In this document: positions 15,431 through 54,500 of the stretch, one piece after another | Position numbering within the stretch: position 1 is the stretch's first letter | How the letters are laid out: every line of letters starts with the position of its first letter | Assembly: GCA_903872345.1 (NCBI GenBank) | Contig: CAIQKM010000157.1 | Span: 10,755 to 74,754, forward strand | DNA: 64,000 bases | Source of the DNA: an uncultured Verrucomicrobia subdivision 3 bacterium | GTDB lineage: Bacteria > Verrucomicrobiota > Verrucomicrobiia > Limisphaerales > UBA11358 | Direction of reading: 5' to 3' | The notes under the pieces: generated by a model | The model's database searches: none | What the model saw: only the letters and a program-made list of their open reading frames with translations | What the model was told of the DNA's origin: nothing | Translations under genes and position numbers: made by a program

Positions 15431-16129
15431 TCATTTGCGGCCGAGGTATTTCAACGTGGCCTCGGTGCGGGACTGGACGTGGAGTTTTTCGTAGATGATG
15501 CGCTGGTGATGTTTCACCGTGTTGAGGGCGATGCCGAGCTGATCGGCGATTTCCTTGTAGAGATAGCCGCGGGCGAGCAGGGCGAGAATCTCCTGTTCGC
15601 GCTGGGTGAGCATGGCGGTTTCGGACCGGGGCTCCTTGATTTCGTGAAAATAGGCGACGACCTTGCGGGCGATTTGCATGGACATGGGCGCGCCGCCGGA
15701 ATGGACTTCGTGAATCGCCTGGATCAGTTCTTCCGCCGGCATTTCTTTGAGCAAATAGCCGTTGGCGCCGGCGCGCAGGCAGTTGAAGATGAGGTCGGAT
15801 TCCTGGTAGGTGGTGAGAATCAGGACGCGCAGTTCGGGAATGACGGCCTTGAGTTTGGCGACACATTCAAAACCGCTCATGCCGGGGAGTTTGATGTCCA
15901 CGACGACGACGTCGGGCGACTGGCCGGGAACAATTCCCTGCACGGCCGCCTCGCCGGAGGCGTAGGCGTGGAGCAGGCGCAGGCGCGGTTCGCTGTTCAG
16001 CAGGGCGACGAGGCTTTGGCGCGTGCCGAGATTGTCTTCGACGATGGAGACGGAGATGGGCATCGGCCTAATGCTGTCCGCCGGCAAAATGGCAGGCAAG
16101 CAAATTGCGGGCGGAGCGGGCGGATTCAT
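15431..16129 (-). CDS. NarL/FixJ-family response regulator
   Basis: VSIVEDN, PDVVVVDIKLPGMSG, ILTTY and GYLLK, plus the LuxR HTH LTQREQEILALLARGYLYKEIADQLGIALNTVKHHQRIIYEKLHV. The start ATG overlaps the stop of the upstream kinase (ATGA at 16126..16129). An alternative start is MPISV at 16063. Confidence 0.9.
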   Translation of the reverse strand: MNPPAPPAICLPAILPADSIRPMPISVSIVEDNLGTRQSLVALLNSEPRLRLLHAYASGEAAVQGIVPGQSPDVVVVDIKLPGMSGFECVAKLKAVIPELRVLILTTYQESDLIFNCLRAGANGYLLKEMPAEELIQAIHEVHSGGAPMSMQIARKVVAYFHEIKEPRSETAMLTQREQEILALLARGYLYKEIADQLGIALNTVKHHQRIIYEKLHVQSRTEATLKYLGRK

Positions 16130-19100
16130 GAATTTCCGGGTTTGGCGAGGATCAAGGTCACACGGGTGCCGGCGCCGGCCCGGCTTTCAATGGCGGACTG
16201 GCCGCCGATTTCAGCGAGGCGCTGTTTCATGTTGGGCAGGCCGTCGGCAAATTCGCGGTCGGGCGGGGAGTCAAAGCCGTGGCCGTTGTCTTCGATGACA
16301 ATGGTCAGGAGCCGGTCGGTGGCGGTGATGCGCAGCCAGACTTCGTTGGCCTCCGCATGGACGATGACGTTGTTCAGCGCCTCTTTCACGGCGAGAAACA
16401 GGTTGTGCCGCACTTCGGGGGAGACCGCCCAGGCGACCGGGTGGTCCGGCAGATCCACGCGGCAGCGGATGTCGGCCCGGGCCAGAAATTCGATGGCGAA
16501 CTGGCCGAGGTAATCAATCAGGTGCGGGAGCGTGTCGTTGCGCGGGTTGACGGCCCAGACGATTTCATCCAGCGACTTGATGATCTGCCGGGTGGCGGCG
16601 AGACCTTCCTGGCCCAAGCGGGTCACGGCGTCGGGTTGCGTACGCTGGCGCTGGGCCAGCTCAAAGAGCAGTTTGATCTGGGTGAGGCTGCCGCCGAGGT
16701 CATCGTGAATGTCCTTGGCGATGCGCGCGCGCTCTTTGTCCAACGCCGCCTGCTGCTCAAGCGTGTGCAACCGGGAATGGAGACGACGGAAGGAAACGTA
16801 TCGCACGATGGCAATGACACCGCCGGTGAAGAGGATGAGCATGGCGGTTCGGAACCACCACGACTGCCAAAAGAACGGGGCGACGGCCAGTTCGAGGGCA
16901 TGGGCTTCGCTCCATGGTCCGTCCCCGGTCCGGGCCCTGGCCTGGAAGGAGTAGATTCCGGGGGGAAGCCGCGAATAATTGGCCGTGCGTTGCGGCGCGG
17001 CGTCCACCCAGTTGTCATCAAAGCCGGCGAGCCGGTATTGGCAATGGATGTTTCCGGGCGTGCCGAAACTGAGCGTGGCAAATTCAAATTGGATCCGGTG
17101 ATGGCCGGGGGGCAAGGCCAGGGTGGCCGGCGGGCGGGAGAGGTCAACGGATTCCGGCACGGGGACAATGCCGCCATAGGAGCCGAGGATTTGGTCATCC
17201 ACCATGACCTGTTTCAACAGCACGGGGGGCGGTTGCAGGGATTCGCGCAGGTTGCGGAGGTTGACGACGACGAGAGCGGTGCGGGTGGGAAACCAGAGCC
17301 GGTCATCATGACTGCGCAGCACATTGGGCGATACGCCGAAGTTGGCCTGCAAACTGGGCAGGGCGTCGCCTTCGCCATACTTGATGGAAAGGACCCGTCC
17401 GGCGCGGCCATCGGCGACGTCATCCAATTCCTCCTGCCGCACCTTGAAGAGGCCGCGATCCGAGCCGAACCAGAGCCAGCCGTAGTGGTCAGGAATAATT
17501 TCGGACAGGTAGCCGTTATACAAACCCTGCGCGGTGGTGAGGCGGGAGAAGTGTCCGTTTTTGAGCCGGCCGAGACCCCAACTTGCGTAGCCGATCCAGA
17601 GGCTGCCATCGGGGGTGGCGGCGAGGCAGCGGATGGAGGCGTTCAGGTGGGTGAGGCTGGCGGTTTCATCGGTGAGGCCGCCGTTATGAATCCGGAATAG
17701 CAGGCCTTTGGAGGTGCCGATCCAGATGTCGTTCGCGGCGTCCGCCGTGAAGGCCCGGGCGACGCCGGCTCCGGGCGGCAGGGGATAATTTTGGAATTGG
17801 CCGCCGTGAAGGCATTGCACCAGGTTGGGGTCTTCTTCGGCGATCCATAAATCGTTGCTGGCATCGGTCAGCAGACCGAGAACGACATGGCCGGGGAAGC
17901 CGTTGGTGCCGCGCCAGGTCGAATAGTTTCCGTCGCGCAGGCGGTGGAGCGCATGGCTTTGGGTGCCGATCCAGACGGTGCCATCGGCGCCGGCGGTCAC
18001 GCAGCCGGCCCGCCCGCCCGGCCAGTTGGTTGCGGTTGATACCGGGTGCCAGCCATCGGCGGTCAGACAGGCCAGGACGCCATTCTGGGTCACGGCCCAA
18101 ATGGCATGGGCGGCATCTTCACAGACGGATTGCACGGTGCCAAACGCCAGGCCGGTGGAATCATTTTCCAAGGTGAAGGCGCGGGGTTGGATGCGGTCCA
18201 CGCCGCCTCCGCCGGTGCCGATCCACAGGCCGCCTTCGCGGTCCGACAGCAGGCTGGAGATGTAAGAATGTGACGTGTGGACGCTGGCAAAACCGGTGCC
18301 ATTGAAGCGGTACAGGCCGCTGGCGGCCGTGCCTATCCAGACGGCACCGGCCTGGTCTTCGAGCATGGTTGTGGGGGATTCAAGCTGGCAGGTGCCGGCG
18401 GATTGCAGCCGGCCGGAGTCATCGCATTTGAGCAATTCCTGGCCGGTGCAAACCCAGACGCCGCCGCTGGCGGCTCCGGTCAGACGGGGGCTGTGGACGA
18501 GGGACTTGGCGAGGGTGAGGAAGTGGCCGTCTTGGAAGCGGCCGATTTGACCGTCCTTGGCAAACCAGATGCGGCCCTGGCGGTCCCGGGCGAGGGTGCC
18601 GTCAAACCGGACGGGCAGGCCATCCGCTTCGCGGAACCGGGTCACCTGACCTTGCCGGATGCGGCAGACCGCGCCGCCATGATACGCGAGCCAGATGGCG
18701 CCTTCGCCGTCCTCGACCATTTCCTGCACGATGTAATCCGGCAGCCCGTTGGTGAAAATTTCCGCCGGGCCGGTGGTGAGTCGGACGACGGGGCCGTGCA
18801 CCATCGCCAGCCAGAGGCCGCCCCGGGAATCCTCCAGCAAAGTGCTGATCCGGGCGGTATAGCCGGAGTAATTGGGCAGCACGCTTTTGGAGGTGAACTC
18901 CTGGAAGTGGCTGCCGTCAAAACGCGCAACATGGCCGGCCGTGGCCACCCAAAGGTAGCCGTCGGCGGACTGGGCGATACTGGTGACGTTGTTATTGGGC
19001 AGGCCGTCATCAGACTGCCAGGAACGGACCAGCCAGTCGGAAGTGTCCAAGGCCGCCTGACCGCTGCCGGCCAGGAACAGGTACACGCCGGCCCAAAGCC

Positions 19101-19164
19101 AGGGGCGGAGCAACCTGATTGCCCGGCCCCGGGGGAGCCGCCTTGTTTGTTGCAGGTTGGCCAT
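16126..19164 (-). CDS. Sensor histidine kinase with periplasmic beta-propeller repeats + Y_Y_Y domain, HisKA_3 + HATPase_c
   Basis: It has an N-terminal TM helix and many DG.LW[IV][GA]T blade repeats. The Y_Y_Y block is HCQYRLAGFDDNWVDAAPQRTANYSRLPPGIYSFQARA, followed by the TM helix WWFRTAMLILFTGGVIAIV. The H-box is RARIAKDIHDDLGGSL, and the ATPase boxes are EALNNVIVH and IEDNGHGF. I chose ATG 19164 (MANLQQ) because the ORF start at 19242 would overlap the GH2 gene by 74 nt. Confidence 0.88.
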   Translation of the reverse strand: MANLQQTRRLPRGRAIRLLRPWLWAGVYLFLAGSGQAALDTSDWLVRSWQSDDGLPNNNVTSIAQSADGYLWVATAGHVARFDGSHFQEFTSKSVLPNYSGYTARISTLLEDSRGGLWLAMVHGPVVRLTTGPAEIFTNGLPDYIVQEMVEDGEGAIWLAYHGGAVCRIRQGQVTRFREADGLPVRFDGTLARDRQGRIWFAKDGQIGRFQDGHFLTLAKSLVHSPRLTGAASGGVWVCTGQELLKCDDSGRLQSAGTCQLESPTTMLEDQAGAVWIGTAASGLYRFNGTGFASVHTSHSYISSLLSDREGGLWIGTGGGGVDRIQPRAFTLENDSTGLAFGTVQSVCEDAAHAIWAVTQNGVLACLTADGWHPVSTATNWPGGRAGCVTAGADGTVWIGTQSHALHRLRDGNYSTWRGTNGFPGHVVLGLLTDASNDLWIAEEDPNLVQCLHGGQFQNYPLPPGAGVARAFTADAANDIWIGTSKGLLFRIHNGGLTDETASLTHLNASIRCLAATPDGSLWIGYASWGLGRLKNGHFSRLTTAQGLYNGYLSEIIPDHYGWLWFGSDRGLFKVRQEELDDVADGRAGRVLSIKYGEGDALPSLQANFGVSPNVLRSHDDRLWFPTRTALVVVNLRNLRESLQPPPVLLKQVMVDDQILGSYGGIVPVPESVDLSRPPATLALPPGHHRIQFEFATLSFGTPGNIHCQYRLAGFDDNWVDAAPQRTANYSRLPPGIYSFQARARTGDGPWSEAHALELAVAPFFWQSWWFRTAMLILFTGGVIAIVRYVSFRRLHSRLHTLEQQAALDKERARIAKDIHDDLGGSLTQIKLLFELAQRQRTQPDAVTRLGQEGLAATRQIIKSLDEIVWAVNPRNDTLPHLIDYLGQFAIEFLARADIRCRVDLPDHPVAWAVSPEVRHNLFLAVKEALNNVIVHAEANEVWLRITATDRLLTIVIEDNGHGFDSPPDREFADGLPNMKQRLAEIGGQSAIESRAGAGTRVTLILAKPGNS

Positions 19165-19168
19165 GGCT

Positions 19169-22060
19169 TCAGGGCACGGACGGACGCGGGGTGCTCGGCT
19201 GCGTAATGATATTGACGATGGCGGTCGCCAATCCATCCGCACTAGCCGTCAGGCTGACGGTTCCCGCCTGCTTATCCGCTTGTACAATCACCTGCGCCAG
19301 ACCGTTGAACGCGCTGCGTTTCCAGCCGGCCGAGGCCGGGGTCGCCGGAAATTCCACGCTGACACCGCCGCAGAGGCCGCCGGAATCCGCCTTGCCGTTT
19401 ACCAGCACGGCCACGGTGTTGACGCCCGCGTGAACAAAGGGCCGCACATTAAATGCGGGTGACGCGGCGGGATCGTGCGACTCCCCGGCGAGTTTGCCAT
19501 TCACATATACCGAGCCGTCATCCTTGATGGCGCCGAAGCGGACGGTGATATTGGTGGCGGCCAGATCGGCGGCGGGAACGAACAGGTGGGCGCGAAAAAT
19601 GCCCGATTCGCCGGCGGCAAGCATGCCGGAACCGCCCTGGACATCCACCTTGTCGAGCCGGGTTTCATTGAATTTTTCGGCCAGTTCCGGGTGGTCCGCC
19701 CGGGCGGAAACCGTTTTCATCCACCATTCGTTCATGGTCCCGCAGCGGAGCGCCGGTTGGGGGAAATAGACATCGGGTTCATGGCAGCTCGGGTCGCCGT
19801 TGCCAACGCCGATGATTTTTCCGGGGCCGCTCAAGGCGAAATGAACCAGATTGCCGGCGGTTGGCACGGTCCGGCCCTGGGCATCGGCGATGGCGACGGT
19901 GATGATGCTCAAGTCCTCGCCATCGGCATGAATGGTGGAGCGGTCGGGCAGGAGCCGGACGGTGGCGGGGGTGCCGGTGGTTTCGACCCGGGTTTCGGCC
20001 GTCAGCTTGCCATCAGTATAACCTTTGGCGCTCAAAACACCGGGCGCATATTTGACCGGCCACTGGAGATGCGAATTTCGCTTCATCGTCTGCCGGCCCA
20101 GGCTTTGGCCGTTGAGGAACAGTTCGACCTCCTGACAGTTGCTGTCGCACCACACATCAATGTTCCGGCCTTCCTGGCCGGGCCAGTTCCAGTGCGGCAG
20201 CAGGTGCAGCACGGGCCGGGCGGTCCACCAGGCCTGGTAGTAATAGAAATTATCCTTGGGAAAACCGCAAGTGTCCACGATGCCGAAATGGGAGTTGATG
20301 CAGGGCCAGGAATAGGGGGTGGGTTCGCCGCGATAGTCAAAACCGGTCCAGACAAAGCCGCCGCTCAGCCAGGGGCGTTCGGCAAAAAAGGTCCACCAGC
20401 CCTCGGCCTTCTGGGTGGCGCCGGGATTGTCATCGTAGGCGCTGACATAACCGTGTTCGGGGTCTTTGGCATAGATGCCGCGCGTGCCAACGGTGCTGGC
20501 CTGTTCGGTGCCGACACTCGGTTGCGCCGGGTGTTTGCGGTGGTAATCGTCGGTGCCGGGACCCAAGTGATAATTCCAGCCGCGCACATCCACGACGCCG
20601 TCAATGCCGGTGAAGACATCGCCCAGGGAGACGGCACTGGTCACGGTGCGCGTCGGGTCGAGCCGATGAATCTCGCGCTGCATGGTTTCGGCGATGCGGC
20701 CGGAGGCGGGCGAGGCTTGAACATGTTCCTCATTGGCGATGGACCACATGAAGACGCAGGCATGGTTGCGGTCCCGCCGGATCTGGCCGGCGAGCAGCGC
20801 CAGGTTTTCCTCGTCGCTCCCGAGGATGCGGTTTTCATCCATCACCAACATGCCCAGGCGGTCGCAGGCTTCAAGCAGTTCGGGGGTGGGGGCGTTGTGG
20901 GAGGTGCGGTAGGCGTTGCAGCCAAATTCCTTCAGCCGGGCGATGCGAAAATACTGCAAGGCGTCGGGCAGGGCCGCGCCAACGCCGGCATGATCCTGAT
21001 GGTTGCAGGTGCCGTAGATGGGGTAGGGCTGGCCATTGAGGAAAAAACCTTTGTCGGCATCAAAGGCAAACGTGCGGATGCCGAATTCGGTTTCCTGACG
21101 GTCCACGACCCGGCCATCGGCCGTCACCGTGGTGACGAGTTTGTAGAGCTGGGGGGATTCCGGCGACCAGAGGACGGGGCGGGTGATGGCCGTGCTGGAC
21201 TTGGCTTCTTCCTTGGAGAAAGGTTTGATGGTCACGTTTTGGCCGAAGCGGGCGACCGATTCGCCGGCGGGGTTGAAGATTTCCTGGGCGACGGTGGTGA
21301 CCGTGTCGTTGGTCTGCCAATTGGCCACCTGGGTTTTGACCTCGACACTTGCCCGGTCACCGGGAACGTTGTTGGCAAACCTGGCCATGACAAAAATGCC
21401 GTCCGGAGCGATGGCGACGGGGGCGGTTTTTTCCAGCCAGGCATGGCGGTAGATGCCGGCGCCTTCGTAAAACCAGCCTTCAAATTTGGCGGCGTCCACG
21501 CGGACGGCGACGACGTTTTCGCCGCCGCAGTTGGCCACGTCGGTGATGTCGTAGCGGAAGCTGTCGTAGCCGCTTTCGTGGCGGCCAAGGCGGAAGCCGT
21601 TGACGAAGACGAGGCAGTCCCGGTACACGCCGTCAAACTCCAGCCAGAGGCGCCGGTCGGCGTCGGTTGGGGCGAGGGTAAAGGTGCGGCGATACCAGCC
21701 AATGCTGTTTTCCGGATAGTTTTTGCCCACGGGCTTGAAACCGTGGCTGCGGTCGGACTTGGCGTCGAAAGGCAGTTCCACCACCCAGTCGTGGGGCAGA
21801 TTTACCGGGCGCAGGGCGGCGTCGCAGAAGGTGGCATCGGCCGGCCCGGTGCTGATCCCGGCTTTCATGAGGTTTTCGGCGGTGCCCCAATCATCCCCCA
21901 AATAGAATTTCCAGCCTTGATCGAGGAGCAGCTTTTCGCGGGGCGGTTCCGCCGCCGCCATGGTCAGGGTCGTGGCGAGGATGACACTGGCGGCGAGCAC
22001 CAGGGATTTGCGCCCCCAAAAGGCGGACAGGACGGTGGAGGAATGCCGGCAGGTAAACAT
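19169..22060 (-). CDS. GH2 glycoside hydrolase (beta-galactosidase-type) with C-terminal accessory domains
   Basis: [72 protein letters not shown] and WSIANEE follow the GH2 sugar-binding / Ig / TIM-barrel order. Confidence 0.9.
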
Positions 22061-22134: not shown

Positions 22135-22152
22135 GCCCGAACGGGCGATTGT
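22135..22152 (+). promoter_or_regulatory. 18-nt box gcccgaacgggcgattgt, copy 1 (candidate operator/promoter element)
   Basis: An exact 18-mer also occurs at 23360..23377. This copy lies in the divergent intergenic region between the GH2-kinase-regulator operon and the pseudopilin-like gene at 22270. Confidence 0.35.
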
Positions 22153-22269: not shown

Positions 22270-23193
22270 ATGAATATCCGCCGCCATAATAATACCAAGG
22301 TTTCCGGGTTCACCCTCATCGAATTGCTGGTGGTGATCGCCATCATCGCGATCCTGGCCGCCATGCTGCTGCCCGCCCTGGCCTCGGCCAAGCGCAAGGC
22401 GACCATTACGACCTGCCTGAACAATCAGAAACAGCTCAGCCTGTCCTGGCGAATGTATGCGGACGACAATAACGACGGCCTCGTGGGGGCCAACTGCGAG
22501 GCGGGCACGGACTGGCGCATTTCCCCGGCGGGCAACGGTTTTTTGATGCCGACGATTCCGGCGGGAATACCCACGCCGTCGTCGTCCCGGCTCAATCAAT
22601 ATCTGGATGAGCAGGGTTTTCGCCAGGGCGGCTTATTCCGGTATTGCAACAATCCGGATCTGTTGCATTGCCCGGCGGACAACCGTTACCAGACCGGCAA
22701 CTTTGCCTTCGACAGCTATTCGATGGTCAACGGCCTGAATGGATCGGCGACGGCGAATACTTTTCCGCAGCCAACCCTGACCAAGGAGACGGCGATTCGC
22801 AGCCCGAGCGGCAAATTCATCTGGGTGGAAGAGAATGATCCGCGCCAGCAATCCGCCGGCTCCTATACGGTGTACGAAAACCAGAATTCCTGGACGCTGG
22901 GGATCACCGGCAGCACGTATCCGGGTAACTGGTCGAGCCTGACCTGGTATGACGGGCCGGCGGCGTATCATCAGACCAGCGCGACCTTCAGCTTTGTGGA
23001 CGGGCACGCGGAAAACCACCGGTGGCTGGACGCGGGCACCATCAAACTGGGCAACTCCATCAACAAACCGTCGGATTGCCAGAATACGGGGGTGACGAGC
23101 GGCTCGTTTGCGACGAGTCCGCATGATTTGCCCTGGGTGGCGGACGGCTATGCTTTCCCGGCTTTTGGCAACAATCCCGGAAACAATAATTAA
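22270..23193 (+). CDS. Prepilin-type N-terminal cleavage/methylation domain protein, H-X9-DG family
   Basis: The ATG at 22270 lies inside ORF 22096..23193. The N-terminus is [40 protein letters not shown] is an exact H-X9-DG. Confidence 0.9.
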
Positions 23194-23217: not shown

Positions 23218-23250
23218 CGGCCGCAGCCACCCGCTGCGGCCGTTTCTTTT
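23218..23250 (+). terminator. Rho-independent terminator after the pseudopilin-like gene
   Basis: A perfect 10 bp GC stem pairs cggccgcagc (23218..23227) with gctgcggccg (23233..23242). The loop is caccc, followed directly by tttctttt. Confidence 0.7.
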
Positions 23251-23359
23251 GCGGGCGGTGATATTAAACCGGAACCGCCCGGGGCAACCACCGATGGAGG
23301 AAGCGCCCCCAATCTTGTTTCGCTTGTACGGAATTAAGGTGGCGGCGATGCGGGTTGCC

Positions 23360-23377
23360 GCCCGAACGGGCGATTGT
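23360..23377 (+). promoter_or_regulatory. 18-nt box gcccgaacgggcgattgt, copy 2
   Basis: This is an exact repeat of 22135..22152. It lies downstream of the terminator at 23218..23250 and ~175 nt upstream of the giant PATR gene start (23551). Confidence 0.35.
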
Positions 23378-23550
23378 TGGAAACCGTCAAACCAGTCAGG
23401 ATGGGTTATCCCAAAGAATATGACTGTCCCCATATTGCCAGCGTCATTGGCGTGGAAGCAGACGCTTTTCATGAGTGATGACGGTGTGTCAGGCGGCGGG
23501 CGGGCAATCGATCTTTGCACAAATCCCCAACAACCCAACGTCGAGATCCT

Positions 23551-26500
23551 ATGAGTAATGTCATGATAAAATCCCCAACCTGGGCGGTGCTGGCCGCCGG
23601 TCTGCTGGCTGCCCACCTGGCTTCGGCCCAGACGGAGAGCTGGAATGGCAGCGTCAATCAAAACTGGTCCACGGCCGGCAACTGGTCGGCGGTCGCGGTG
23701 CCCGGTTCGGCCACGAACGTGCTGTTCACCAACAGCGTGGGCTCGGCGGCGGCGGCCGGCGCCATTGACAACATCGTCAACAGCGGCTTTGGCGGCACCA
23801 TCGGGGCTTTGCAATATGCGAACACCAATACGAGCAACGGCGCCGGCTTCTATCACACCACGCAAATCGGCGCCGGCCAGACGCTGACGCTGACGGGCGG
23901 GCTGATAGCCGGCTCCCTGACGGACCTGGGCGGGAATGCGGTGGTCAACGCGGCCATTACCGGGGCCGGGGGCAAGCTGGTGATGAGCAACACCAGCAGC
24001 AATCTGGTGGCGAACCAGGGCAGTGGCACCAGCGGCGCCCATACCGGGATATTAAATCTGACGAATCTGGACGTATTCACCGCCACCATTGGCCGGATCA
24101 TCGTTGGCAACGCCTCCCTCGGGGTGGCGCGCGCCGAAGGGGCACTGTATCTGGCGAAGACGAACTTCATCACGCTGTCCGGCTCCGCCCCGCAAATCTA
24201 TGCGGGTTACAACAACGGCAATAACAATGGCAACAATACGTTCAGCTATATTTTTCTGGGCCAGTCAAATGTCCTTGCGGTCAACTCCATCACGATTGGC
24301 GCGGACAAGAACGCGGCGGTGATGGCGTTTAATCCGGCGATTACCAACGGCAACCCGGTGGCCGTGTTCCGCGGCGGCGGCGGCGGCACGAGCCGGGTGT
24401 CGTCCTGGACTCTGGGCAACAACTCGGCGCAGACCAGCACCGGCAGCACGAGCGTGGGGACGAATGATTTTTCGAACGGCTACCTGGATGCCATGGTGGA
24501 TTCGATGATTCTCGGGGAAAGCGAATCCGGCGCGAGCTCCGGTTCCGGGAGCGGCACGGGCATCTTCACCTTCACGGCCGGGACCAATAATGTGAACACC
24601 CTTTACGTGGGCTATCGGGTCGCCACCGGCGGCAACTGCGCGGGCATCGGCGCCATGAATGTGAACGGCACGGGCACGCTGATTGCGAACAATGCCATCT
24701 GCCTTTCATATTGGAATGGCGGCTCGGCCAACGCCTATGCCACCGGCAACTTGAACATCAATGGCGGCACGGTGCTGGCCAATACGATTACGAACGGGGT
24801 CACGGTGAGCGGAGCCAACAACACGGCCAACATCACCATCAATGGCGGCACGCTGGGCCTCACGAGCATTCTGGGCACGGCGGGCACGCTGGCGTCGCCC
24901 CTGTTGAATTTCAGCGCGGCCAATGCGGCCCTGCAATTGCAGGTGTCCGGAATCCAGACGAACATCGAGGCGGTGACGTTTAGTCCGTCCGGCCTGACCA
25001 ATCTAATCAATATCAGCTATCTGCCGCCCATCACCAGTTATCCGGTCACTTATCCGCTGATCGGCTTTCAAAACCTGGGGGGGACGCTCAATGTGGGGGT
25101 CAGCAACCTGCCGGCGGCGACGCCGGCGTATCAGGGGTATGTAACAAATGACGCCAACACGGTTTACCTGGTGCTGACCAGCGGGCCGACGCTCGGTTCG
25201 CAGGTGGACAAATGGACCGGCGCGGCGGGCGGCAACTGGGATGCGGTGACGGTCAACTGGAGCGCCTCCGGTTCGCCGGTGACCTATGCGAACGGCGCGC
25301 CGGTGCAGTTTGACGACACCGCCACGGGCGCCACGAACATCAATCTCACCACCACCCTGCTGCCGGCCAGCATCACGGCCAGCAACAGCGTGCTGCCTTA
25401 TATCCTGACCGGCACCGGCAAGATTTCCGGCGGCGCGGGCCTGACGAAGTATGGCAGTGGCACGCTGACGGTGGCGAACGCCGGGAACAATGATTTTGTC
25501 GGGAACATCACCATCAATGCCGGCGCAATCCAGTTTGGCAATGGCAGCACCAACGGGAATTTGCCGGTGACGGGAACGATCACCGACAACGGGAACCTGA
25601 TTTTCAACCACAGTAATAATACGCTCGTGCCTAACACTGTTACCGGCGGCGGCACGCTGACGCAAAATGGCAATGACGTGGTGACGCTCACGGCCTCCAA
25701 CAGTTTTAACGGCCTGGCGGTGGTGAACACGGGGATGCTGCTGGTGAACGGGGTGCTGTCGGGCGCGCTGACGAATGCGGCGGGCGCAACGGTCGGCGGC
25801 AATGGCACCAACGCGGGGGCGGCCAGCATCAGTGGCGTCATCCAGCCAAGCGCCGCCAGCGGCATGCCGGCGACATTCACGCTGGGCGGACTCGATCTGC
25901 TGGCCGGGGCGACCCCCCGGTTCATCCTGAATGGCACGGATAGCACGATGGGCAACGGAGTTAATGACCTGCTGCAGGTCAATGGGGATCTGGCGGCCAA
26001 CAATAACGCGGTGGCGCTCAACTTCATCGGCACCCCGCAGACAGGCGTGCCTTACACGCTAATCAATTACACCGGCAACCTGACCGGCAGTTTCGCAACG
26101 GCGGCGACGGGCACGCATTTCACAACGGCGGTGGACCAATCAACGCCCAATGAGATCAATGTGACCCTGAGCGGTTCGGGCGCAAACTTGAAATGGGATT
26201 CCAGCGTCAGCGCCACCTGGGATACCGGCATCAGCAGCAACTGGCTGAACGGCAGTTCGCCCGATGTGTTTTATGCCGGGGACAACGTGCTGTTGGACGA
26301 CACCGCCGGGGTGGTGACGAATATTACCATTGGGTCCGGCGTGGTGGTTTATCCAAATGTCATTACCGTGAGTTCGGCGGTCAATGATTTCAGCATAGGC
26401 GGCGGCCAGATCGGCGGGGCGGCCAGCATTCAGAAGAGCGGGGCCAGCGTCCTGGCACTGAACTCGGCGAACACGTTTACCGGGGGCGCCAATGTCACGG

Positions 26501-27972
26501 GAGGCACAGTGAGACTCGGCGCAAATGGCGCTTTGGGTACGGGACTGAGCTACTTTACCAACGGAGCGACGCTGGATTTGAACCTGCATTCCGCCAGCGG
26601 TTCCGTGGTGGTTTCCGGCGCGGGCGTGGGCGGTCAGGGCGTGATTATTAACAGCGCGGCGAGCGCCAATGGCGACCAGAATGCCTTCGGCAGCGGGGTG
26701 ACGGTTTATTTGCAGGCGGATGCAAAATTTGGTTCGGTGAACCGCTGGGACATCCGCAACGGCAGTCTGGCAAGCAATGACGGCAATCCCTGGAACCTGA
26801 CGGTGGCGGGGACAAACATGATCGCGCTGGTGAATGCCACGGTGGATGATCGCTTGGGGAATATTGACATTCAGAGCGGCACTTTTGCCATCCAGACGTC
26901 AACCCTGACGGATAGCTCATCCTGGGCGGGCAATGCCAACCACGTCATTACCGTGGAAACCAACGCCACGTTGGAGGTGGATTTCACCGGGTTTGTGGCC
27001 TTGGGGCAGACGCTGGTGTTCAATGACGGCTCGACCTTGCAAAATGACGGTTCCGCGTGCGTGCTGAACGGGCCGGTGACGTTGGCGGGCGGGAATGTGA
27101 ATGTTTTCAACACGGCGGCCACGACGGTCGAGCTGGATGGCGTGATCAGCGGTCCGGGTGGTTTCACCAAGAACAGCGCGGCTTCCATGACCTTGACGGC
27201 GGCGGACACGTACACGGGCGGCACTGCGGTCAATGCGGGCACGCTGTTTCTGACGGGTTCCGGGGCGATCACAGGCAGCACCAACATCACCATTGCCGCC
27301 GGGGCGACGGTGGATGTTTCGGCGCTGGCCACCCCGGCGATGACGCTGGGCGCGGGCCAGACTTTGCGCGGCAACGGGCTGTTGAACGGCAGCCTGGTCG
27401 TGGGGACGGGAGCAACGGTTGCGCCCGGCACCAATGCCGGTTCCATCGGTCTGCTCACGGTCACAAACAGTGTGACGCTGGGCGGCACAACCGTGATGAA
27501 GCTCAGTCATTTGCCCCTGACCAATGACGTGATCAGCGCGGCCAGCGTCACTTTCGGTGGCACGTTGAATCTGGTGGGCCTGACCGCCTTGCAGGCGGGT
27601 GACAGCTTCCAACTGTTCCCGGCGGGCGCCAGTTATTCGGGCGCGTTTGCCGCGATCGTTCCGGCCACGCCCGGTGCCGGCCTGCTCTGGAACACGAACA
27701 GTCTGGCCACCGGGATGTTGAGCGTGGTCAGCGGCGTGGTGCCGCAGCCGCACATCACCGGCATCAGCCTGACGGGCACCAGCCTGGTCATTAATGGCAC
27801 CAACGGGCTGGCGGGTGAATCCTACAATGTATTGACGACCACCAACCTGGCGCTGCCACTGGCAAACTGGACGGTGCTGCCGACCAACACGTTTACCGCC
27901 GGGAACTTCAGTCTTACCAACACGGTGAATCCCGGCGCGGCGCAAAGTTTCTACATTCTGCGCGTACCGTAA
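23551..27972 (+). CDS. Giant secreted autotransporter-associated beta-strand repeat (PATR) protein, no beta-barrel translocator, FYR-type C-terminal module
   Basis: The ATG at 23551 gives MSNVMIKSPTWAVLAAGLLAAHLASAQ. PATR units recur, for example LTKYGSGTLTVANAGNNDFVGNITINAGAIQFG, IQKSGASVLALNSANTFTGGANVTGGTVRLG and FTKNSAASMTLTAADTYTGGTAVNAGTLFLTG. The composition is G/T/N/A-rich and beta-helix-like. The tail is NPGAAQSFYILRVP. Confidence 0.9.
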   Translation: MSNVMIKSPTWAVLAAGLLAAHLASAQTESWNGSVNQNWSTAGNWSAVAVPGSATNVLFTNSVGSAAAAGAIDNIVNSGFGGTIGALQYANTNTSNGAGFYHTTQIGAGQTLTLTGGLIAGSLTDLGGNAVVNAAITGAGGKLVMSNTSSNLVANQGSGTSGAHTGILNLTNLDVFTATIGRIIVGNASLGVARAEGALYLAKTNFITLSGSAPQIYAGYNNGNNNGNNTFSYIFLGQSNVLAVNSITIGADKNAAVMAFNPAITNGNPVAVFRGGGGGTSRVSSWTLGNNSAQTSTGSTSVGTNDFSNGYLDAMVDSMILGESESGASSGSGSGTGIFTFTAGTNNVNTLYVGYRVATGGNCAGIGAMNVNGTGTLIANNAICLSYWNGGSANAYATGNLNINGGTVLANTITNGVTVSGANNTANITINGGTLGLTSILGTAGTLASPLLNFSAANAALQLQVSGIQTNIEAVTFSPSGLTNLINISYLPPITSYPVTYPLIGFQNLGGTLNVGVSNLPAATPAYQGYVTNDANTVYLVLTSGPTLGSQVDKWTGAAGGNWDAVTVNWSASGSPVTYANGAPVQFDDTATGATNINLTTTLLPASITASNSVLPYILTGTGKISGGAGLTKYGSGTLTVANAGNNDFVGNITINAGAIQFGNGSTNGNLPVTGTITDNGNLIFNHSNNTLVPNTVTGGGTLTQNGNDVVTLTASNSFNGLAVVNTGMLLVNGVLSGALTNAAGATVGGNGTNAGAASISGVIQPSAASGMPATFTLGGLDLLAGATPRFILNGTDSTMGNGVNDLLQVNGDLAANNNAVALNFIGTPQTGVPYTLINYTGNLTGSFATAATGTHFTTAVDQSTPNEINVTLSGSGANLKWDSSVSATWDTGISSNWLNGSSPDVFYAGDNVLLDDTAGVVTNITIGSGVVVYPNVITVSSAVNDFSIGGGQIGGAASIQKSGASVLALNSANTFTGGANVTGGTVRLGANGALGTGLSYFTNGATLDLNLHSASGSVVVSGAGVGGQGVIINSAASANGDQNAFGSGVTVYLQADAKFGSVNRWDIRNGSLASNDGNPWNLTVAGTNMIALVNATVDDRLGNIDIQSGTFAIQTSTLTDSSSWAGNANHVITVETNATLEVDFTGFVALGQTLVFNDGSTLQNDGSACVLNGPVTLAGGNVNVFNTAATTVELDGVISGPGGFTKNSAASMTLTAADTYTGGTAVNAGTLFLTGSGAITGSTNITIAAGATVDVSALATPAMTLGAGQTLRGNGLLNGSLVVGTGATVAPGTNAGSIGLLTVTNSVTLGGTTVMKLSHLPLTNDVISAASVTFGGTLNLVGLTALQAGDSFQLFPAGASYSGAFAAIVPATPGAGLLWNTNSLATGMLSVVSGVVPQPHITGISLTGTSLVINGTNGLAGESYNVLTTTNLALPLANWTVLPTNTFTAGNFSLTNTVNPGAAQSFYILRVP

Positions 27973-32726: not shown

Positions 32727-33893
32727 CTATTTTTCCGCCAACTGCTGTTCCAGCCAGGGGCCGACGGCAGCGGCCCATAACTGGCCGTGACGTTGCAATC
32801 CCCGGGCGTTGAAATGAATGCCCCGGCCGTTGTTCTGGCGGAATTCGGGGCCGAGCTGGTCGGTGGCGGGGCCGGCCAGGGCCAGACCATCCGTGACGAG
32901 CGATTTTTGGGCGGCGCAGAGTTCGGGGGTGCTTTGGTCATCCGGCGTATGATAGCTCACCTGGGCGACGAACCACGGGACGCGCCAACCGGCGGCGGTG
33001 CGCGAGGATTCGATGACACGTTGGAGATACCGGCGGTATTGGGCAGGCGTGATTTCGCGGTCCGGCGGCTGGCGGGAATCGGATTCGCCCTGATGCCAGA
33101 GCAGGGCGCGGAAGCCGCCGGGGCCGAAGAATTTTTCGGCGGTGACAATTTTATCGAACAAGGTGCCGGTGCAGACCCACTGGTTGGAGCCGGTGGTGAC
33201 GGTGTTCATGCCCGTGGTGGGCGGAGCGGCCATGGCGTCGCCGGCGGGCAGCCATTCGCGCACGCTGGTGGAACCGACCCCCAAGGCGACGAGCCCGACG
33301 GGCACCTGAAAGCGGGCGGCCATGGCATCCCCAAAAGCGGGCATAAAACTGCCGCCTTTGCCGCTGGCGCCAGGCTCGGGATCACGGGCGGGCTGCCAGT
33401 GGCCATCCAGAATGCTGTAAGCGACGACGAGCGGACTTTGGGCCGACTGTTTTTCTTCGCCGTGATTGGCGGAATTGGACTGGCCGGCGACCAGAAAAAT
33501 TTCACCAATGCCGACATGTTCCACGGTGTCGGTCCAAGCCACGAGACCCGGGCCGGCGAGGCGGATTTCGAGCCGGTACCAGCCGCCGGCCGGGGTGGGC
33601 AGTTCACCGCGAAAGCGCCGGACCCGGTTATCAAAGGGCAGGGGAACCCAGTTGTTAGTGGCGGTATCACTGATGAGCCGCGCTTCGAGCCGGTCGAGAT
33701 TGGTCAAGGCGGCGTGGCCTTGCACCTCGAGTTGGCCGGCGATAAGGATGGCGCCGGCGGCCTTGGTCTGCCGTTGAAACACCTGGTAATCGAGCGGGGA
33801 GGACAGGGTGATCTTGAGCGCGTCAGCGGAATCGGACTGCGCGCCGGCAGTGACCAGCAAGGAGCCAAGGAACAGGATCAACAGGGCTTTCAT
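32727..33893 (-). CDS. SGNH/sialate-O-acetylesterase-like carbohydrate esterase (DUF303-like)
   Basis: This is the 3' 388 codons of the 985-aa ORF track entry. ATG 33893 gives the signal peptide MKALLILFLGSLLVTAGAQS. EIFLVAGQSNSANHGE (GQSN block) and ALLWHQGESD match the SASA/DUF303 pattern. Confidence 0.85.
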   Translation of the reverse strand: MKALLILFLGSLLVTAGAQSDSADALKITLSSPLDYQVFQRQTKAAGAILIAGQLEVQGHAALTNLDRLEARLISDTATNNWVPLPFDNRVRRFRGELPTPAGGWYRLEIRLAGPGLVAWTDTVEHVGIGEIFLVAGQSNSANHGEEKQSAQSPLVVAYSILDGHWQPARDPEPGASGKGGSFMPAFGDAMAARFQVPVGLVALGVGSTSVREWLPAGDAMAAPPTTGMNTVTTGSNQWVCTGTLFDKIVTAEKFFGPGGFRALLWHQGESDSRQPPDREITPAQYRRYLQRVIESSRTAAGWRVPWFVAQVSYHTPDDQSTPELCAAQKSLVTDGLALAGPATDQLGPEFRQNNGRGIHFNARGLQRHGQLWAAAVGPWLEQQLAEK

Positions 33894-34034
33894 GGACGGA
33901 AGTCTAGCGGCGGGCGGCCAAGATTGCCATCGCCCGATTTCGCGTTTGACATTAATTCCAAAAATTTCCGGAAAACGTGCGCCGGTTTTTTTCCGTGGTT
34001 GAATGGGGGGATGAGCTGTGGCACTAATGAAGGA

Positions 34035-37000
34035 ATGCCATTTTTGCCGTCCCTCATCCGCCGGGTTTGCCTCTGGGCCCGGGTGCTGCTGCTGCTGGCG
34101 GCAGCCGGCGGGCGGCTGGCGGCGGACACTGCTCAGGATTACATGGTCAAGATCTGGAGCGTGGATGACGGCCTGCCGGAAAGCAGCATCAGCGACGTGA
34201 TCCAATCCCGGGACGGTTACCTCTGGGTGAGCACTCTGAACAGCGGACTGGCGCGTTTTGACGGGGTGCGGTTTGTGAATTTTGATGTGCCGTTTGCCTC
34301 GCAGTTTACGAGCGGCGGGGTGCGTCGTTTGTTTGCGGCGGAGGACGGGACGCTCTGGATCAATGGCTTTGGCAATTACGTGGCCAGCCTCCGGGGCGGA
34401 TCGTTTCAACTGGAAAACACGCAGCCGTCGGTTTTCAACTGGCTGGTCTGGCAAAAGGCCGGGCAGGTGGTGTTTGCCACGAAGGAGGGGCAGTTGCTCG
34501 CCGGCACGCCGACGGCCGGGACGAATTACACCTGGCACACCATGCTGGCGCCCGGCGCGGGTGAAAACGCCCGTTTTTTTGCGGATGCTGGGGGCGGTTT
34601 TTGGTATCGCCGGGCGGATGGACAGTTGGCGCGGATAACGGGGACCGAAGCCGGTGTGATGCCGCTGCCCGCCGGGGGTGCCGGCATTATGGCGCTGACC
34701 GGCGACAATCAGCAACGGATCGCGGTGGCCAGTGCCAACGGCCTGTTCGTCTGGTCGGGCGACAAATTTCAAGAGGCGACGCCGATCAATGGTGAACCAG
34801 GTTTCACGGCCCATGGGATCGTATCCGACGGCCGGGGCGGCTGGTGGGTGGAAGTGAACAATCGGCTGCGGCGCTGCCATGACCGTCAGTGGATTGCGGA
34901 GGCAACCGACTGGCGCAAACAGCGGCGCACGTGGTCCAAAGTCCGCTGGGAGCAGCCGGACGCCAATGGCGGGCTGTGGCGGGCTTATACGGATGGCGGG
35001 GTGGTTCACGTGGACCCGGCGGGCAAACTTTCGGCGCTGACCGCCGATGACGGGCTGCCCAGCAACCGGGTGCGGACGTTGACCCAGGATCGGGATGGCA
35101 ATGTCTGGGCGAGTTTTGAACGGGGCGGGGTGGTGCGCATCCGGCCGCGGTTGTTCCAGTCGGTTGGACGGGCGGAAGGGCTGGCGGATTCGGTGACCAC
35201 TTCGGTTTGCGAGGATGCGCGGGGGGCGGTGTGGATTGGCACGTTGAGCGGGGCGGTCAGTTGCTGGAATCAGGGCGTGTGCCGCAATTTCACGCTGCCG
35301 CTGGAGGGCACGCATTGCGAAATGTCCACGGTGTTTCCCGATTCCGGGGGCCGGATCTGGGTTGGCACGCATGGCAACGGCTTGCTGGTCTATGAGGATG
35401 GCCAGTTCCGGCATGTGCTCTCGCTTGGCCAGGTGGGGGTGAACATCCGGGGGATTTTTGTGAGTCGTGACGGCCGGGTCTGGATTGCGAGCCAGGACGG
35501 ATTGTATTGTCTGGCGAACGGCGAAGTGCGGCGGGTGCAGACCCCGCGATCGGAGGCGGATTACCCCGTGGCGCTGGCGGAAGGCGCGGACGGAGTGATC
35601 TGGGTGGCGCTGAACACGGGAGTGCTGATGAAATATGCCGGCGGGCAGATCACCGCCTATCAGCCGGAGGAGGCCGCCCTGCACAGCCGGTTTTCCGCCG
35701 TGTGTGTGGATTCACCGGGCACGGTTTGGGTGGGGACGCTGGGGGCGGGGCTGCTGCGGTTTCAAGCCGGTCATTTTACGGCCATCACCAAACGGGACGG
35801 GTTGCCAACCGACAACATTTCCCAGGTGATCGACGATGCGGCGGGCGGATTATGGCTGGGATCGCCCGCCGGGATCATTGCCGTGCGCAAAGAATTTTTA
35901 AATGGCCGGGATGGAAATGCGGTGGGTCGTGTTTTTGGGCGGGATGACGGTTTGCCCACGGTGGGGTGCGCCACGGCATCACAACCAACCGTCTGGCGGG
36001 GCCGGGAGGGAAGGCTGTGGTTTGCAACCGCCAACGGCCTGACCAGTGTGCAGCCGGGAAATACCCAAACGAGACAGAGTCCCCCGGCGGTGTTGCTGGA
36101 GGAAGTGCGGATCGACGGGCAGCCGGCCGGGGCGGTCGCCGAGGGGAAACCGCTGCCGGCCGGGGCAACGCTCCGGTTGAGCCCGGGCCGCCACCAGCTT
36201 GAATTCCGTTACACCGGATTAAGTTTCACCGCCCCCGAGCGAATCCGGTTCAAGTATATGCTGGAGGGGTTGGATGGCGTCTGGGTGGATAACCAGTCTG
36301 ACCGGACCGTGAGTTATCATGACGTGCCGCCGGGCGAATACCGTTTCCGGGTGAATGCCTGCAACAGTGATGGCCACTGGTCGGCGGCGGAGGCCACCGT
36401 GGCGTTGGTGCTGCCGCCCCATGTCTGGGAAACGGCTTGGTTCCGGCTGACGGCCCTGGCGGCGAGCCTGCTGCTGGTGGCGGGTTCGGTGTTCTGGATC
36501 TCGCAGTTGCGCCACCGCCGGCAACTGCTGGTCTTGCGGCAGCAGCAGGCGCTGGAACGCGAGCGCACGCGGATTGCCCAGGATATTCATGATGATCTCG
36601 GGGCGAGCCTGACGCGCATCACGATGCTGAGCCAGTCGGCGTTGAACAAACCGGAGTCCGCCGCGCCGGCCGGCGAAGTGAAACGCATTTATGCGACGGC
36701 CCGGGCCATGACCAACGCGATGGATGAGATCGTCTGGGCGATCAATCCGCGGCATGATTCGATTGAAAGCGTGGCGGCCTATTTTGCCGATTTCACGGAG
36801 GAGTTTCTGAGTCCTGCGGGATTGCGGTTCCGGATTGATATTCCGCTGCAGTTGCCGGCGTGGTCCATCAATGCGGAAGTGCGGCACAACCTCTTCCTCG
36901 CCTTCAAGGAAGCCATGAACAATGTGGTCAAACATGCGCAGGCCAGCGAGGTGGCCGTGGTTTTGGAAGTGCGGCCGAACGGGTTTGTGCTGTCGGTGAG

Positions 37001-37184
37001 CGACAATGGCCGGGGTTTTGCAGCGCCGGCGCCGGCGCCACCGGGGTCGGCGGCGGTCGCGGCCCGGGGCAACGGGTTGAACAACATGCGCCGCCGGCTG
37101 GAAGAGCTCGGCGGTCGCTGTGTCATTGCCAGCGTTCCCGGCCAGGGCACGCAGGTGCGGTTTGAAATGGATGTGCGCGCATGA
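34035..37184 (+). CDS. Sensor histidine kinase with periplasmic beta-propeller repeats + Y_Y_Y domain, HisKA_3 + HATPase_c
   Basis: The real gene is the 3' part of ORF 32787..37184. ATG 34035 (MPFLPSLIRRVCLWARVLLLLAAAGG) or 34011 is the start. It has propeller blades (DGYLWVST, DGTLWING, GAVWIGT, GRIWVGT, ...). The Y_Y_Y block is FKYMLEGLDGVWVDNQSDRTVSYHDVPPGEYRFRVNA, followed by the TM helix WFRLTALAASLLLVAGSVFWI. The H-box is RTRIAQDIHDDLGASL, then the ATPase boxes. Confidence 0.88.
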   Translation: MPFLPSLIRRVCLWARVLLLLAAAGGRLAADTAQDYMVKIWSVDDGLPESSISDVIQSRDGYLWVSTLNSGLARFDGVRFVNFDVPFASQFTSGGVRRLFAAEDGTLWINGFGNYVASLRGGSFQLENTQPSVFNWLVWQKAGQVVFATKEGQLLAGTPTAGTNYTWHTMLAPGAGENARFFADAGGGFWYRRADGQLARITGTEAGVMPLPAGGAGIMALTGDNQQRIAVASANGLFVWSGDKFQEATPINGEPGFTAHGIVSDGRGGWWVEVNNRLRRCHDRQWIAEATDWRKQRRTWSKVRWEQPDANGGLWRAYTDGGVVHVDPAGKLSALTADDGLPSNRVRTLTQDRDGNVWASFERGGVVRIRPRLFQSVGRAEGLADSVTTSVCEDARGAVWIGTLSGAVSCWNQGVCRNFTLPLEGTHCEMSTVFPDSGGRIWVGTHGNGLLVYEDGQFRHVLSLGQVGVNIRGIFVSRDGRVWIASQDGLYCLANGEVRRVQTPRSEADYPVALAEGADGVIWVALNTGVLMKYAGGQITAYQPEEAALHSRFSAVCVDSPGTVWVGTLGAGLLRFQAGHFTAITKRDGLPTDNISQVIDDAAGGLWLGSPAGIIAVRKEFLNGRDGNAVGRVFGRDDGLPTVGCATASQPTVWRGREGRLWFATANGLTSVQPGNTQTRQSPPAVLLEEVRIDGQPAGAVAEGKPLPAGATLRLSPGRHQLEFRYTGLSFTAPERIRFKYMLEGLDGVWVDNQSDRTVSYHDVPPGEYRFRVNACNSDGHWSAAEATVALVLPPHVWETAWFRLTALAASLLLVAGSVFWISQLRHRRQLLVLRQQQALERERTRIAQDIHDDLGASLTRITMLSQSALNKPESAAPAGEVKRIYATARAMTNAMDEIVWAINPRHDSIESVAAYFADFTEEFLSPAGLRFRIDIPLQLPAWSINAEVRHNLFLAFKEAMNNVVKHAQASEVAVVLEVRPNGFVLSVSDNGRGFAAPAPAPPGSAAVAARGNGLNNMRRRLEELGGRCVIASVPGQGTQVRFEMDVRA

Positions 37185-38020: not shown

Positions 38021-38773
38021 ATGTTTTATCCGGTGAAGCCCATGCGTGTTTCTGCAACCTCGGCCCGGCGGGCGGCCTTTACCCTGATCGAATTGCTGGT
38101 GGTCATCGCTATCATTGCCATTCTGGCGGCGATGCTGCTGCCGGCCCTGGCCCGGGCCAAACGCGCGGCCAACCGCAGCGCCTGCGTTTCCAATCTGCGC
38201 CAGGATGGCCTGGCCATCAAAATGTTCGCGGATGACAACGATGACTTGCTGCCGCCCGGCCCCGATGGCGCCAACGCCAATCCGCCGTTTGGCCTCAGCG
38301 GCGGACCGAATCCGATCTACACTTCGGTCGCCAGCCAGAACAAGCAGTTGGGCACCTATATCGGCCGTTACCTGGGGCTGGCGGATCCGCTGCCGGGAAT
38401 GACCAACCAGGTAAAAACGTTGATCTGTCCCGGCGCGCAGTTTCCCTCGGCCATCAACATCCTGACCAATGTCTATTACGTGGTCTCGCAGGGCGGCGTC
38501 AATGCCGGCAACGGCCAGTTGCCCAAGAGCGGCTGGTGGCCGTTTGGCGACTCCGCCGGCGGCGTTGGCTATGGCCCGCATAAAATTGGCGACATTGCCA
38601 ACGAGGCCCAGTTGCCGGTTTCGGAAGTATGGATGTTGGGGGATGCCGATCAGGTGGCCAATCCCTCCGACCTGTTGCTGGCCCGCATCCCGGCGCATCA
38701 AACCCTCCGTAATTTTGTGTATTTTGACAACCACGTCGGCACCCGGAAAGTCGGTGTGGCCGGCACCTGGTGA
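38021..38773 (+). CDS. Prepilin-type N-terminal cleavage/methylation domain protein, H-X9-DG-family variant (H-X9-DN)
   Basis: The N-terminus is [28 protein letters not shown]. The C-terminal [14 protein letters not shown] has the H-X9 spacing but DN in place of DG. Confidence 0.88.
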
Positions 38774-54480: not shown

Positions 54481-54500
54481 ATCAAAAAAATCGAACCAAT

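Follow-up and report, generated by a model that had tools for sequence, protein, structure and literature searches.

The 64 000 nucleotides (nt) of DNA considered here, called the window in what follows, span positions 10755 to 74754 of contig CAIQKM010000157.1 (C157) in the genome of an uncultured Verrucomicrobia subdivision 3 bacterium (assembly GCA_903872345.1). Pfam scans describe the window as a run of glycan-degradation loci. Within it lie four forward-strand genes coding for pilin-like proteins, named after their start positions 5690, 22270, 38021 and 54501 (P0001, P0002, P0003 and P0004 in the same order), and these are the subject of this work. The whole genome (204 contigs, 6.54 Mb, 58.5% GC) served as the sequence base. 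In our assessment the four genes are probably separate, old paralogues, ordinary members of a family already catalogued in the Planctomycetes-Verrucomicrobia-Chlamydiae (PVC) bacteria as 'prepilin-type / H-X9-DG / DUF1559-like'.

Four genes and their N-terminus

The first gene (5690..6553) codes for 287 amino acids (aa), with a 16-aa leader immediately followed by FTLIEL and, near the C-terminus, an H-X9-DG motif at nt 6380-6415. The second (22270..23193) codes for 307 aa, with a 13-aa leader before FTLIEL and again a literal H-X9-DG (nt 22969-23004). The product of the third (38021..38773; 250 aa) has H-X9-DN at nt 38696-38731, and the stop of this gene overlaps the start of the PATR gene downstream. 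The fourth (54501..55304; 267 aa), which belongs to a DUF1559-like subfamily, displays H-X14-DG (nt 55098-55148). An earlier note on this DNA had quoted the four translations and their C-terminal motif strings correctly, and its count of four copies, rather than five, is borne out as well. A degenerate back-translation of the shared N-terminal peptide matches the window at exactly four sites (5738, 22309, 38078 and 54543, all on the forward strand; none expected in shuffled sequence), and a looser six-frame scan of the window for N-termini resembling class III signals retrieved no fifth copy.

The leaders of the four proteins are basic, 13-19 aa long, and end at position -1 with A, G, A and G respectively, FTLIEL following directly in every case. 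All four thus have the class III layout, with glycine or alanine at -1, phenylalanine at +1, glutamate at +5, then some 20 hydrophobic residues, the conserved peptide running on to [LM]LLP. All four also pass the cut-offs of the two general models of such N-termini, PF07963 (N_methyl; 27.2, 33.9, 31.5 and 31.0 bits for a cut-off of 21.2) and TIGR02532 (27.8, 28.8, 27.3 and 32.6 bits for 16.3). The genome codes for a single Peptidase_A24 prepilin peptidase, located on contig C75 in a 422-aa open frame counted from stop to stop (38.3 and 28.8 bits, for a cut-off of 26.5), together with nine T2SSE-type ATPases of type II secretion systems (T2SS) or type IV pili (T4P) and four secretins. The shared block encodes, as far as its sequence tells, a class III (prepilin) signal with its cleavage site between [G/A] and F and glutamate at +5, continued by the hydrophobic alpha-1N helix. 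The description of these proteins as pseudopilin-like is therefore supported, by PF07963 and TIGR02532 in all four and by the presence of a prepilin peptidase in the genome.

A frozen peptide rather than a DNA repeat

At the DNA level, the 75-nt block encoding 25 residues of this N-terminus (22309..22383 in the second gene, forward strand) has counterparts at 5738-5812, 38078-38152 and 54543-54617. It had been described as a near-identical, dispersed repeat. This was overstated: pairwise identity of the four blocks is 55-65 nt out of 75 (73-87%), and of the differences between any two, almost all synonymous, 7-16 affect the third position of a codon and just 0-4 the first or second. An identical 18-aa stretch is found in 74 of the 89 paralogues that the genome holds, and an identical 25-mer in 40. 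Among the 74 copies, the mean number of codons shared over these 18 is 9.2 +/- 2.2, while position-specific codon usage of the family predicts 9.3; the six window pairs have 4-12 codons in common, with a mean of 9. Because codon sharing between the window pairs equals the expectation for the family at large, synonymous sites are randomised. The 75-nt identities of the window pairs likewise fall inside the genome-wide range between the 5th and 95th percentiles (42-66). An invariant peptide fully explains the N-terminal similarity, with no part left for a repeat element or a recombination substrate: the block looks like a dispersed DNA repeat because the peptide is frozen at the protein level while its synonymous sites drift. 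Since the solved Thermus PilA (6xxd) starts with a nearly identical helix, the constraint on the block is the universal one that bears on the alpha-1N helix of type IV pilins.

Recombination tracts between the blocks were looked for, and nothing supports them apart from one exact run of 36 nt common to 22357-22392 and 54591-54626. Among 3916 pairs from across the genome this run ranks at the 99.7th percentile; it is compatible with chance and may be either that or a very short conversion tract. Gene conversion between the copies was considered and set aside: codon sharing is not raised, and that single run is what is left over. As for the antisense open reading frame (ORF) fragments that had been reported along with the repeat, they are present, the peptide string itself opposite the 22270 gene and close variants opposite the other three. 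They simply mirror the sense peptide and bring no independent support.

A very large family

The genome-wide scan identified 89 paralogues with this N-terminus, scattered over 54 contigs, with glycine at -1 in 47 and alanine in 38. The mature domains of the four window copies belong to four different clades, their nearest in-genome paralogues being 37-45% identical; the 5690 and 22270 proteins fall within a 24-member clade (99% support in the Shimodaira-Hasegawa approximate likelihood-ratio test, SH-aLRT) that also holds paralogues positive for TIGR04294 on contigs C121, C159, C136 and C68. Database searches with the 22270, 38021 and 54501 proteins retrieved at least about 8000 homologues per query at E <= 0.001, among which more than 100 per query are full-length, many of them 55-66% identical. 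Many bear the Joint Genome Institute (JGI) name prepilin-type processing-associated H-X9-DG, and some orthologues of 38021 and 54501 carry PF07596 (DUF1559, also SBP_bac_10). Named sources include Verrucomicrobiota, Limisphaerales and the cultivable Limisphaera ngatamarikiensis, the last with a 57% homologue of the 54501 protein, and a scan of species genomes gave Verrucomicrobiota, Planctomycetota and Lentisphaerae almost exclusively. Relatives of the 5690 protein reach 53% identity at best, and the flanks of the loci returned were too short for synteny.

Families of DUF1559 paralogues are known to be large (PMC2754498, PMC10632474, PMC4807772). They have been noted repeatedly among the largest paralogue families of Planctomycetes, with 68 copies in P. 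limnophila, two of which are essential (PMC10632474), and the family is described as restricted to PVC bacteria (PMC4807772). The window genes resemble the TIGR04294 + TIGR02532 or PF07596 proteins of Planctomycetes, Verrucomicrobia and Lentisphaerae in their class III signal and helix, in their size class (250-330 aa), in the H-X9-DG(H/S) island near the C-terminus and in the same huge expansion, 89 copies here for 74 in R. baltica, 68 in P. limnophila and 67 in Verruconatronum (PMC2754498, PMC10632474, PMC13274419). They differ from them by scores below cut-off, by the DN and H-X14 variants of 38021 and 54501, and by mature domains that can barely be aligned between subfamilies. Here hhalign probabilities are 48%, 8% and 6%, and what aligns is the H-X9-DG island or a YADDN..CP island alone. 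Positions conserved throughout the family are, in the numbering of P0002, AK..A....C49..N..Q, Y63..D66, W82, C134-P135, [D/E]187, H234 and D244-G245-H246. Few paralogue families of PVC bacteria are as large as this one.

The specific models of known secretion and pilus components are not reached. Matches to GspG, GspH, PilA and ComGC are confined to the N-terminus and lie far under the cut-offs, with 27.7-33.9 bits for the T2SS equivalog GspG (cut-off 88.85) and 24-34 bits for GspH (cut-off 80). The same is true of proteins C and D of the Verru_Chthon cassette (TIGR02599, 21-24 bits for 70; TIGR02596, 15-17 bits for 256.5), where the N-terminal helix alone is covered. None of the four genes is near a T2SSE or secretin gene, and none is part of a gsp operon.

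The C-terminal motif differs between the four copies as the earlier note had stated; its further claim, that the series displays graded decay, is contradicted by conservation among orthologues. H-X9-DG is kept in 105 of 119 homologues of 22270. In orthologues of 38021 the residue after H..RNFVYFD is G about as often as N, and this applies even above 60% identity. Those of 54501 conserve P.HR-X(4-7)-P.GGN....DGSA.W.KF and keep a spacing of H-X13-16-DG, so that the longer distance between H and DG in 54501 is a fixed insertion of its subfamily. DG and DN, H-X9 and H-X14 are thus best understood, judging from the orthologues, as stable traits of subfamilies and not as decay.

Structure prediction, which had been called for, returned confident folds. 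AlphaFold2 models of the 22270 and 54501 proteins have predicted local distance difference test (pLDDT) scores of 90.6 and 89.2, and in both a long helix makes up the N-terminus (residues 16-66 and 17-67) and leads into a mixed domain in which beta structure prevails. In the 22270 model H234 stands directly before the penultimate strand, and D244-G245 forms the hairpin turn before the last one. Foldseek comparison of both models with the PDB, and of one of them with BFVD, gave no match at E <= 0.001, the best being type IV pilins over the helix only, and a sequence profile search of the PDB was likewise restricted to the N-terminal helix. Two confident models for which these searches returned no solved relative make the family a worthwhile structural target.

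Glycan-degradation loci

Each of the four genes belongs to a cluster for the degradation of sugar polymers. Upstream of the 5690 gene, 68 nt away, is a giant Laminin_G_3 (LamG) gene (1336..5622, forward strand) whose product ends with ...QQFYRIKY, while glycoside hydrolase (GH) and esterase-type genes come downstream (GH125, GH29, SASA, GH92 and GH20). The 22270 gene is on the forward strand with the gene of a giant PATR-repeat exoprotein (23515..27972; about 1470-1485 aa; C-terminal ...QSFYILRVP), the conserved neighbour of the 22270 group, and that of a DUF1349 protein. They face a divergent minus-strand unit (15431..22060) comprising a GH2 gene (19169-22060), a Y_Y_Y sensor histidine kinase (16126-19242) and a LuxR-type response regulator (15431-16129). 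At the third locus a Y_Y_Y sensor kinase (32787-37184) and a LuxR-type regulator (37181-37903), together 32787..37903 on the forward strand, directly precede the 38021 gene. Next in order are a PATR gene (38770..40785, forward), which begins in overlap with the stop of 38021 and whose product has an FY module at the C-terminus, a LamG giant and a GH92 gene. At the fourth locus the 54501 gene comes after PATR proteins, one of which ends with ...VFYRLRHP (51895..54408, forward), and a terminator.

Six large secreted proteins of the window, be they of LamG or PATR type or unannotated, terminate in one and the same module of some 70 aa (5400-5622, 27750-27972, 32500-32726, 40560-40785, 44090-44310 and 54190-54408), the end of which reads Q.FY[RI][LIM]..P. 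Genome-wide this FYR-type module is found in 72 ORFs, always at the extreme C-terminus, and window scans at E <= 1e-4 reported no Pfam family for the region. Two ORFs of the window, 30858-32726 and 44153-46057, exceed 600 aa each without a Pfam match. The former has a FYR-type tail and shares several exact runs of 16-23 nt with the DUF1349 gene at 28147-30849, to which it is probably paralogous.

The association between pilin-like genes and giants goes beyond the window. Among the 89 paralogues, 30 lie on the same strand and within 400 nt of a giant of the PATR or FYR-tail kind, when random ORFs give 1.5 (6 at most), an enrichment of about 20-fold; within 5 kb the figure is 51, compared with 15.5 for random ORFs. 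Six of six orthologue loci of 22270 combine a Y_Y_Y kinase, a LuxR regulator, the pilin-like gene and a PATR-type giant (1420-1515 aa), most with GH29 or SASA as well, and with gene order inverted in one. In both orthologue loci of 38021 the kinase comes first, then the regulator, the pilin-like gene and the PATR protein; GH92 is downstream in one (L006), and upstream on the opposite strand in the other (L005). Taking the two groups together, a glycosidase or esterase (GH29, GH28, SASA or GH92) is present in the fetched flank of seven of the eight loci. The suggestion that each pilin-like protein is specialised for its cassette holds therefore for two of the four, 22270 and 38021; the neighbours of 54501 orthologues vary. 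A relation between phylogeny and neighbourhood had also been proposed for examination; on the in-genome tree, the copies labelled as adjacent to a giant cluster weakly, the label requiring 21 changes where shuffled labels need 24.9 +/- 2.0; of 300 shuffles, 13 went as low.

Terminators and upstream elements

The expression contexts described previously hold. A hairpin resembling an intrinsic terminator, with its T-run (23218..23252, forward; hairpin 23218-23242, a stem of 10 bp with 9 G-C pairs), is located 25 nt past the stop of the 22270 gene, which reads as monocistronic. Another (54450..54481, forward; hairpin 54450-54473) separates the PATR gene from the 54501 gene, the ATG of which comes some 20 nt after the T-run.

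A conserved element, GCCCGAACGGGCGATTGT, lies 118 nt upstream of the 22270 start codon (22135..22152, forward), where it abuts or overlaps a sigma-70-like -35/-10 pair (22149-22176). Its second copy (23360..23377, forward) is upstream of the gene of the PATR giant, and these are the only two sites in the whole 6.5-Mb genome, even with up to two mismatches allowed. A 17-18-nt element of the form (G)CCCGAACGGG[C/T]GATTGT stands upstream of the pilin-like gene, and again upstream of the giant, in three organisms (that of the window, L003/L004 and L100). It occupies the same two places in L003/L004 (L003 7911 and 8961), and in L100, where the proteins are just about 62% identical, it is found at 319, 5938 and 6940, ahead of a 567-aa gene as well as of the pilin-like gene and the giant. 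The rearranged locus L099 has no CCCGAACGGG[C/T]GATTGT element. The background for such matches is 29 at up to three substitutions in 13 Mb of this genome. The palindrome GCCCG-AA-CGGGC forms part of the element, which abuts TTGTnn and is probably the operator of the LuxR-type regulator of the locus. In that case pilin-like gene and giant would be separate transcription units under common control, a view that agrees with the monocistronic reading of 22270 and so supports functional coupling with the giant. A different conserved upstream element, ATCAGGnnACAAGACGGnTT, precedes the 38021-type gene both in the window (37948-37973) and in L005 (about 7910-7935), and is missing from the more distant orthologous locus L006.

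Possible roles

What could such proteins do? The peptide has to suit a single prepilin peptidase and the type IV filament assembly platform, which is why it would be frozen. Each protein would be cleaved and N-methylated; the common helix would then keep it in the inner membrane, or let it polymerise on a type IV filament or pseudopilus, with a globular domain of about 200-260 aa, particular to the locus, on display. This domain would act outside the cytoplasm in glycan use, possibly as a binding or docking subunit. The Y_Y_Y kinase and LuxR regulator of each locus would induce it along with the giant PATR/LamG exoproteins and the glycosidases, the response regulator binding the CCCGAACGGGCGATTGT element. 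The biochemical role, be it glycan binding or exoprotein docking, is thus a matter of inference.

A bolder proposal can be derived from this scheme, and we advance it tentatively, as possible though on balance unlikely. In Limisphaerales-type Verrucomicrobiota the pilin-like protein and the FYR-tailed giant PATR/LamG exoprotein would form a dedicated, co-regulated pair that replaces SusC/SusD in polysaccharide utilisation loci. The LuxR regulator of the locus would switch both on via CCCGAACGGG[C/T]GATTGT, and the subunit, which its invariant helix would fix to a type IV filament machine common to all, would dock the giant enzyme or its glycan. Were this true, we would be facing a bacterial 'bindosome' with dozens of interchangeable heads, built on a globular fold absent from the PDB. 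In any event the conserved four-part modules (kinase, regulator, pilin-like gene and giant), with their shared upstream element, provide a testable handle on a role in glycan degradation.

Several known systems help to place these loci. In archaea, the bindosome gathers sugar-binding proteins with pilin-type (class III) signal peptides, which the Bas system assembles in Sulfolobus (PMC3047682). The logic is alike, since proteins devoted to nutrient acquisition have a pilin-type signal or anchor and need an enzyme of the prepilin peptidase type; the archaeal proteins, however, are binding proteins of ATP-binding cassette (ABC) transporters, and no ABC transporter adjoins the four window genes. 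The bindosome is the closest functional precedent, by analogy only. Polysaccharide utilisation loci of Bacteroidota similarly have a Y_Y_Y/Reg_prop sensor beside glycosidases, the first regulated genes coding for surface or accessory proteins. They rely, however, on a hybrid two-component sensor and on SusC/SusD, whereas the regulator of the window loci is a separate LuxR-type protein and a pilin-like gene with a giant PATR/LamG stands where SusC/SusD is lacking. Within Verrucomicrobiota, Verruconatronum alginivorum has a pulG-like pseudopilin gene inside an alginate cluster, with 67 homologues in its genome; another pseudopilin, not the same gene and listed outside both alginate clusters, is over-expressed on alginate (PMC13274419). 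This too is a pilin-like paralogue, one of dozens, in a polysaccharide-degradation cluster of this phylum; it differs from the window genes in order (Opitutales, for a probable Limisphaerales), in substrate and in neighbours. Finally, the pseudopilins GspG-K of T2SS and the type IV pilins, such as Thermus PilA (6xxd) and M. xanthus PilA (8tj2), share with the window proteins the alpha-1N helix (FTLIELL[IV]...), glutamate at +5 and a short basic leader ending with G or A. The window proteins differ in globular domains two to three times larger, in genes placed outside machinery operons and in scores that fail every equivalog cut-off.

Alternative explanations have to be weighed. That the 75-nt block is a DNA-level dispersed repeat, kept by gene conversion or recombination, or else a mobile, regulatory or antisense-RNA element, might draw on the 36-nt run shared by 22357 and 54591, extreme among 3916 pairs, and on runs of at least 36 nt being found in 2 of 55 same-contig pairs for 11 of 3861 others. 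Yet identity is modest and the differences gather at third codon positions, codon sharing and 75-nt identities are those of any pair of the family, the mature domains stem from four clades with nearest paralogues at 37-45%, and the antisense ORFs mirror the sense strand without support of their own. This explanation is largely refuted already, and we hold it to be very improbable. Still harder to credit is the idea that the H-X9-DN and H-X14-DG copies are duplicates of a canonical H-X9-DG gene on their way to becoming pseudogenes. The literal motif does deviate in 38021 and 54501, but both frames are intact, with more than 100 full-length homologues each, many at 55-66% identity; the variants are conserved or polymorphic inside their orthologue groups, synteny is conserved for 38021, and the model of 54501 is a confident one. 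Conservation among orthologues already refutes decay, to which we grant next to no credence.

Two other explanations concern function. The pilin-like proteins could be cargo-specific adaptors for secretion or anchoring, placed in the membrane or on a T2SS pseudopilus, at its side or its tip, that recognise the FYR-type module of a giant for export or tethering. The occurrence of one and the same module of about 70 aa at the end of six giants in the window, and of 72 ORFs in the genome, speaks for such adaptors, and the enriched adjacency, the conserved gene order with the PATR giant and the upstream element common to both genes are in line with them. On the other hand, no such giant stands beside two in three of the paralogues in this genome, or beside most of the distant family members; and the genome has 117 giants, about as many as pilin-like genes, of which 30 are paired. 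We see adaptors as a doubtful solution, which deserves to be kept in mind. Improbable, in our view, is the more conventional explanation, by which they would be canonical T2SS pseudopilins (GspG/H/I/J/K) or major type IV pilins and play no more than a structural part in a general secretion piston or an adhesive pilus. Their N-terminal 25-60 residues align with models of GspG, GspH, PilA, ComGC and PpdD and with solved pilins, and the top fold hits, though non-significant, are type IV pilins. However, equivalog scores remain far under the cut-offs and concern the N-terminus alone (28-34 bits for GspG, when 88.85 are needed), proteins of 250-307 aa with globular domains unlike those of any solved pilin do not fit the role, and the 89 copies are dispersed outside T2SS/T4P operons.

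To return to the reading that we prefer, that of ordinary members of a catalogued PVC family which would be displayed by a type IV machine for glycan use, a number of results weigh against it. None of the four proteins reaches the 19-bit cut-off of TIGR04294, 5690 coming best with 12.3 bits in the whole-genome search. That search gave 15 hits over the cut-off, the other three proteins being unlisted even at E <= 10, and hmmscan of C-terminal pieces gave nothing even at E <= 10. PF07596, with a cut-off of 23.3 bits, is not reached either (16.2, 11.8 and 13.7 bits, and no hit for 22270). The 89 paralogues are almost never near ATPase or secretin genes of T2SS or T4P. The neighbours of 54501 orthologues are variable, and 59 of the 89 copies are not flagged as adjacent to a giant, a conservative count, since the tail model missed the giant at 1336-5622 beside 5690. 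In distant PVC loci of the family a giant lies within 5 kb in 3 of 40, as seen by hidden Markov models (HMMs) trained on this genome. That PVC-wide scan was keyed on the N-terminal peptide and its members are distant (<= 38% identity). It argues against a universal pairing of pilin and giant, although models so trained may be too narrow. Given how weakly the profiles of the mature domains match each other, a function common to all four is not assured. To be sure, the finding as it was first written down comes back mostly to an ordinary, already catalogued family, where 'repeat' and 'decay' dissolve on testing.

Other features of the window

Three further observations can be made in passing. 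An 869-aa ORF (19475-22084, forward) antisense to the GH2 gene is a spurious frame of the kind that is typical of G+C-rich DNA, where ORF length alone is unreliable. The PATR ORFs 50184-51944 and 51895-54408 overlap by 50 nt in different frames; they may be a single gene, interrupted by a frameshift or an error of sequencing, or else read through a programmed shift. The 16-mer TGCGCCCCTTCCCATA is present twice (48604-48619 and 48951-48966) in the intergenic region that separates the GH92 gene from a forward-strand DUF6625 gene (49015-50013).

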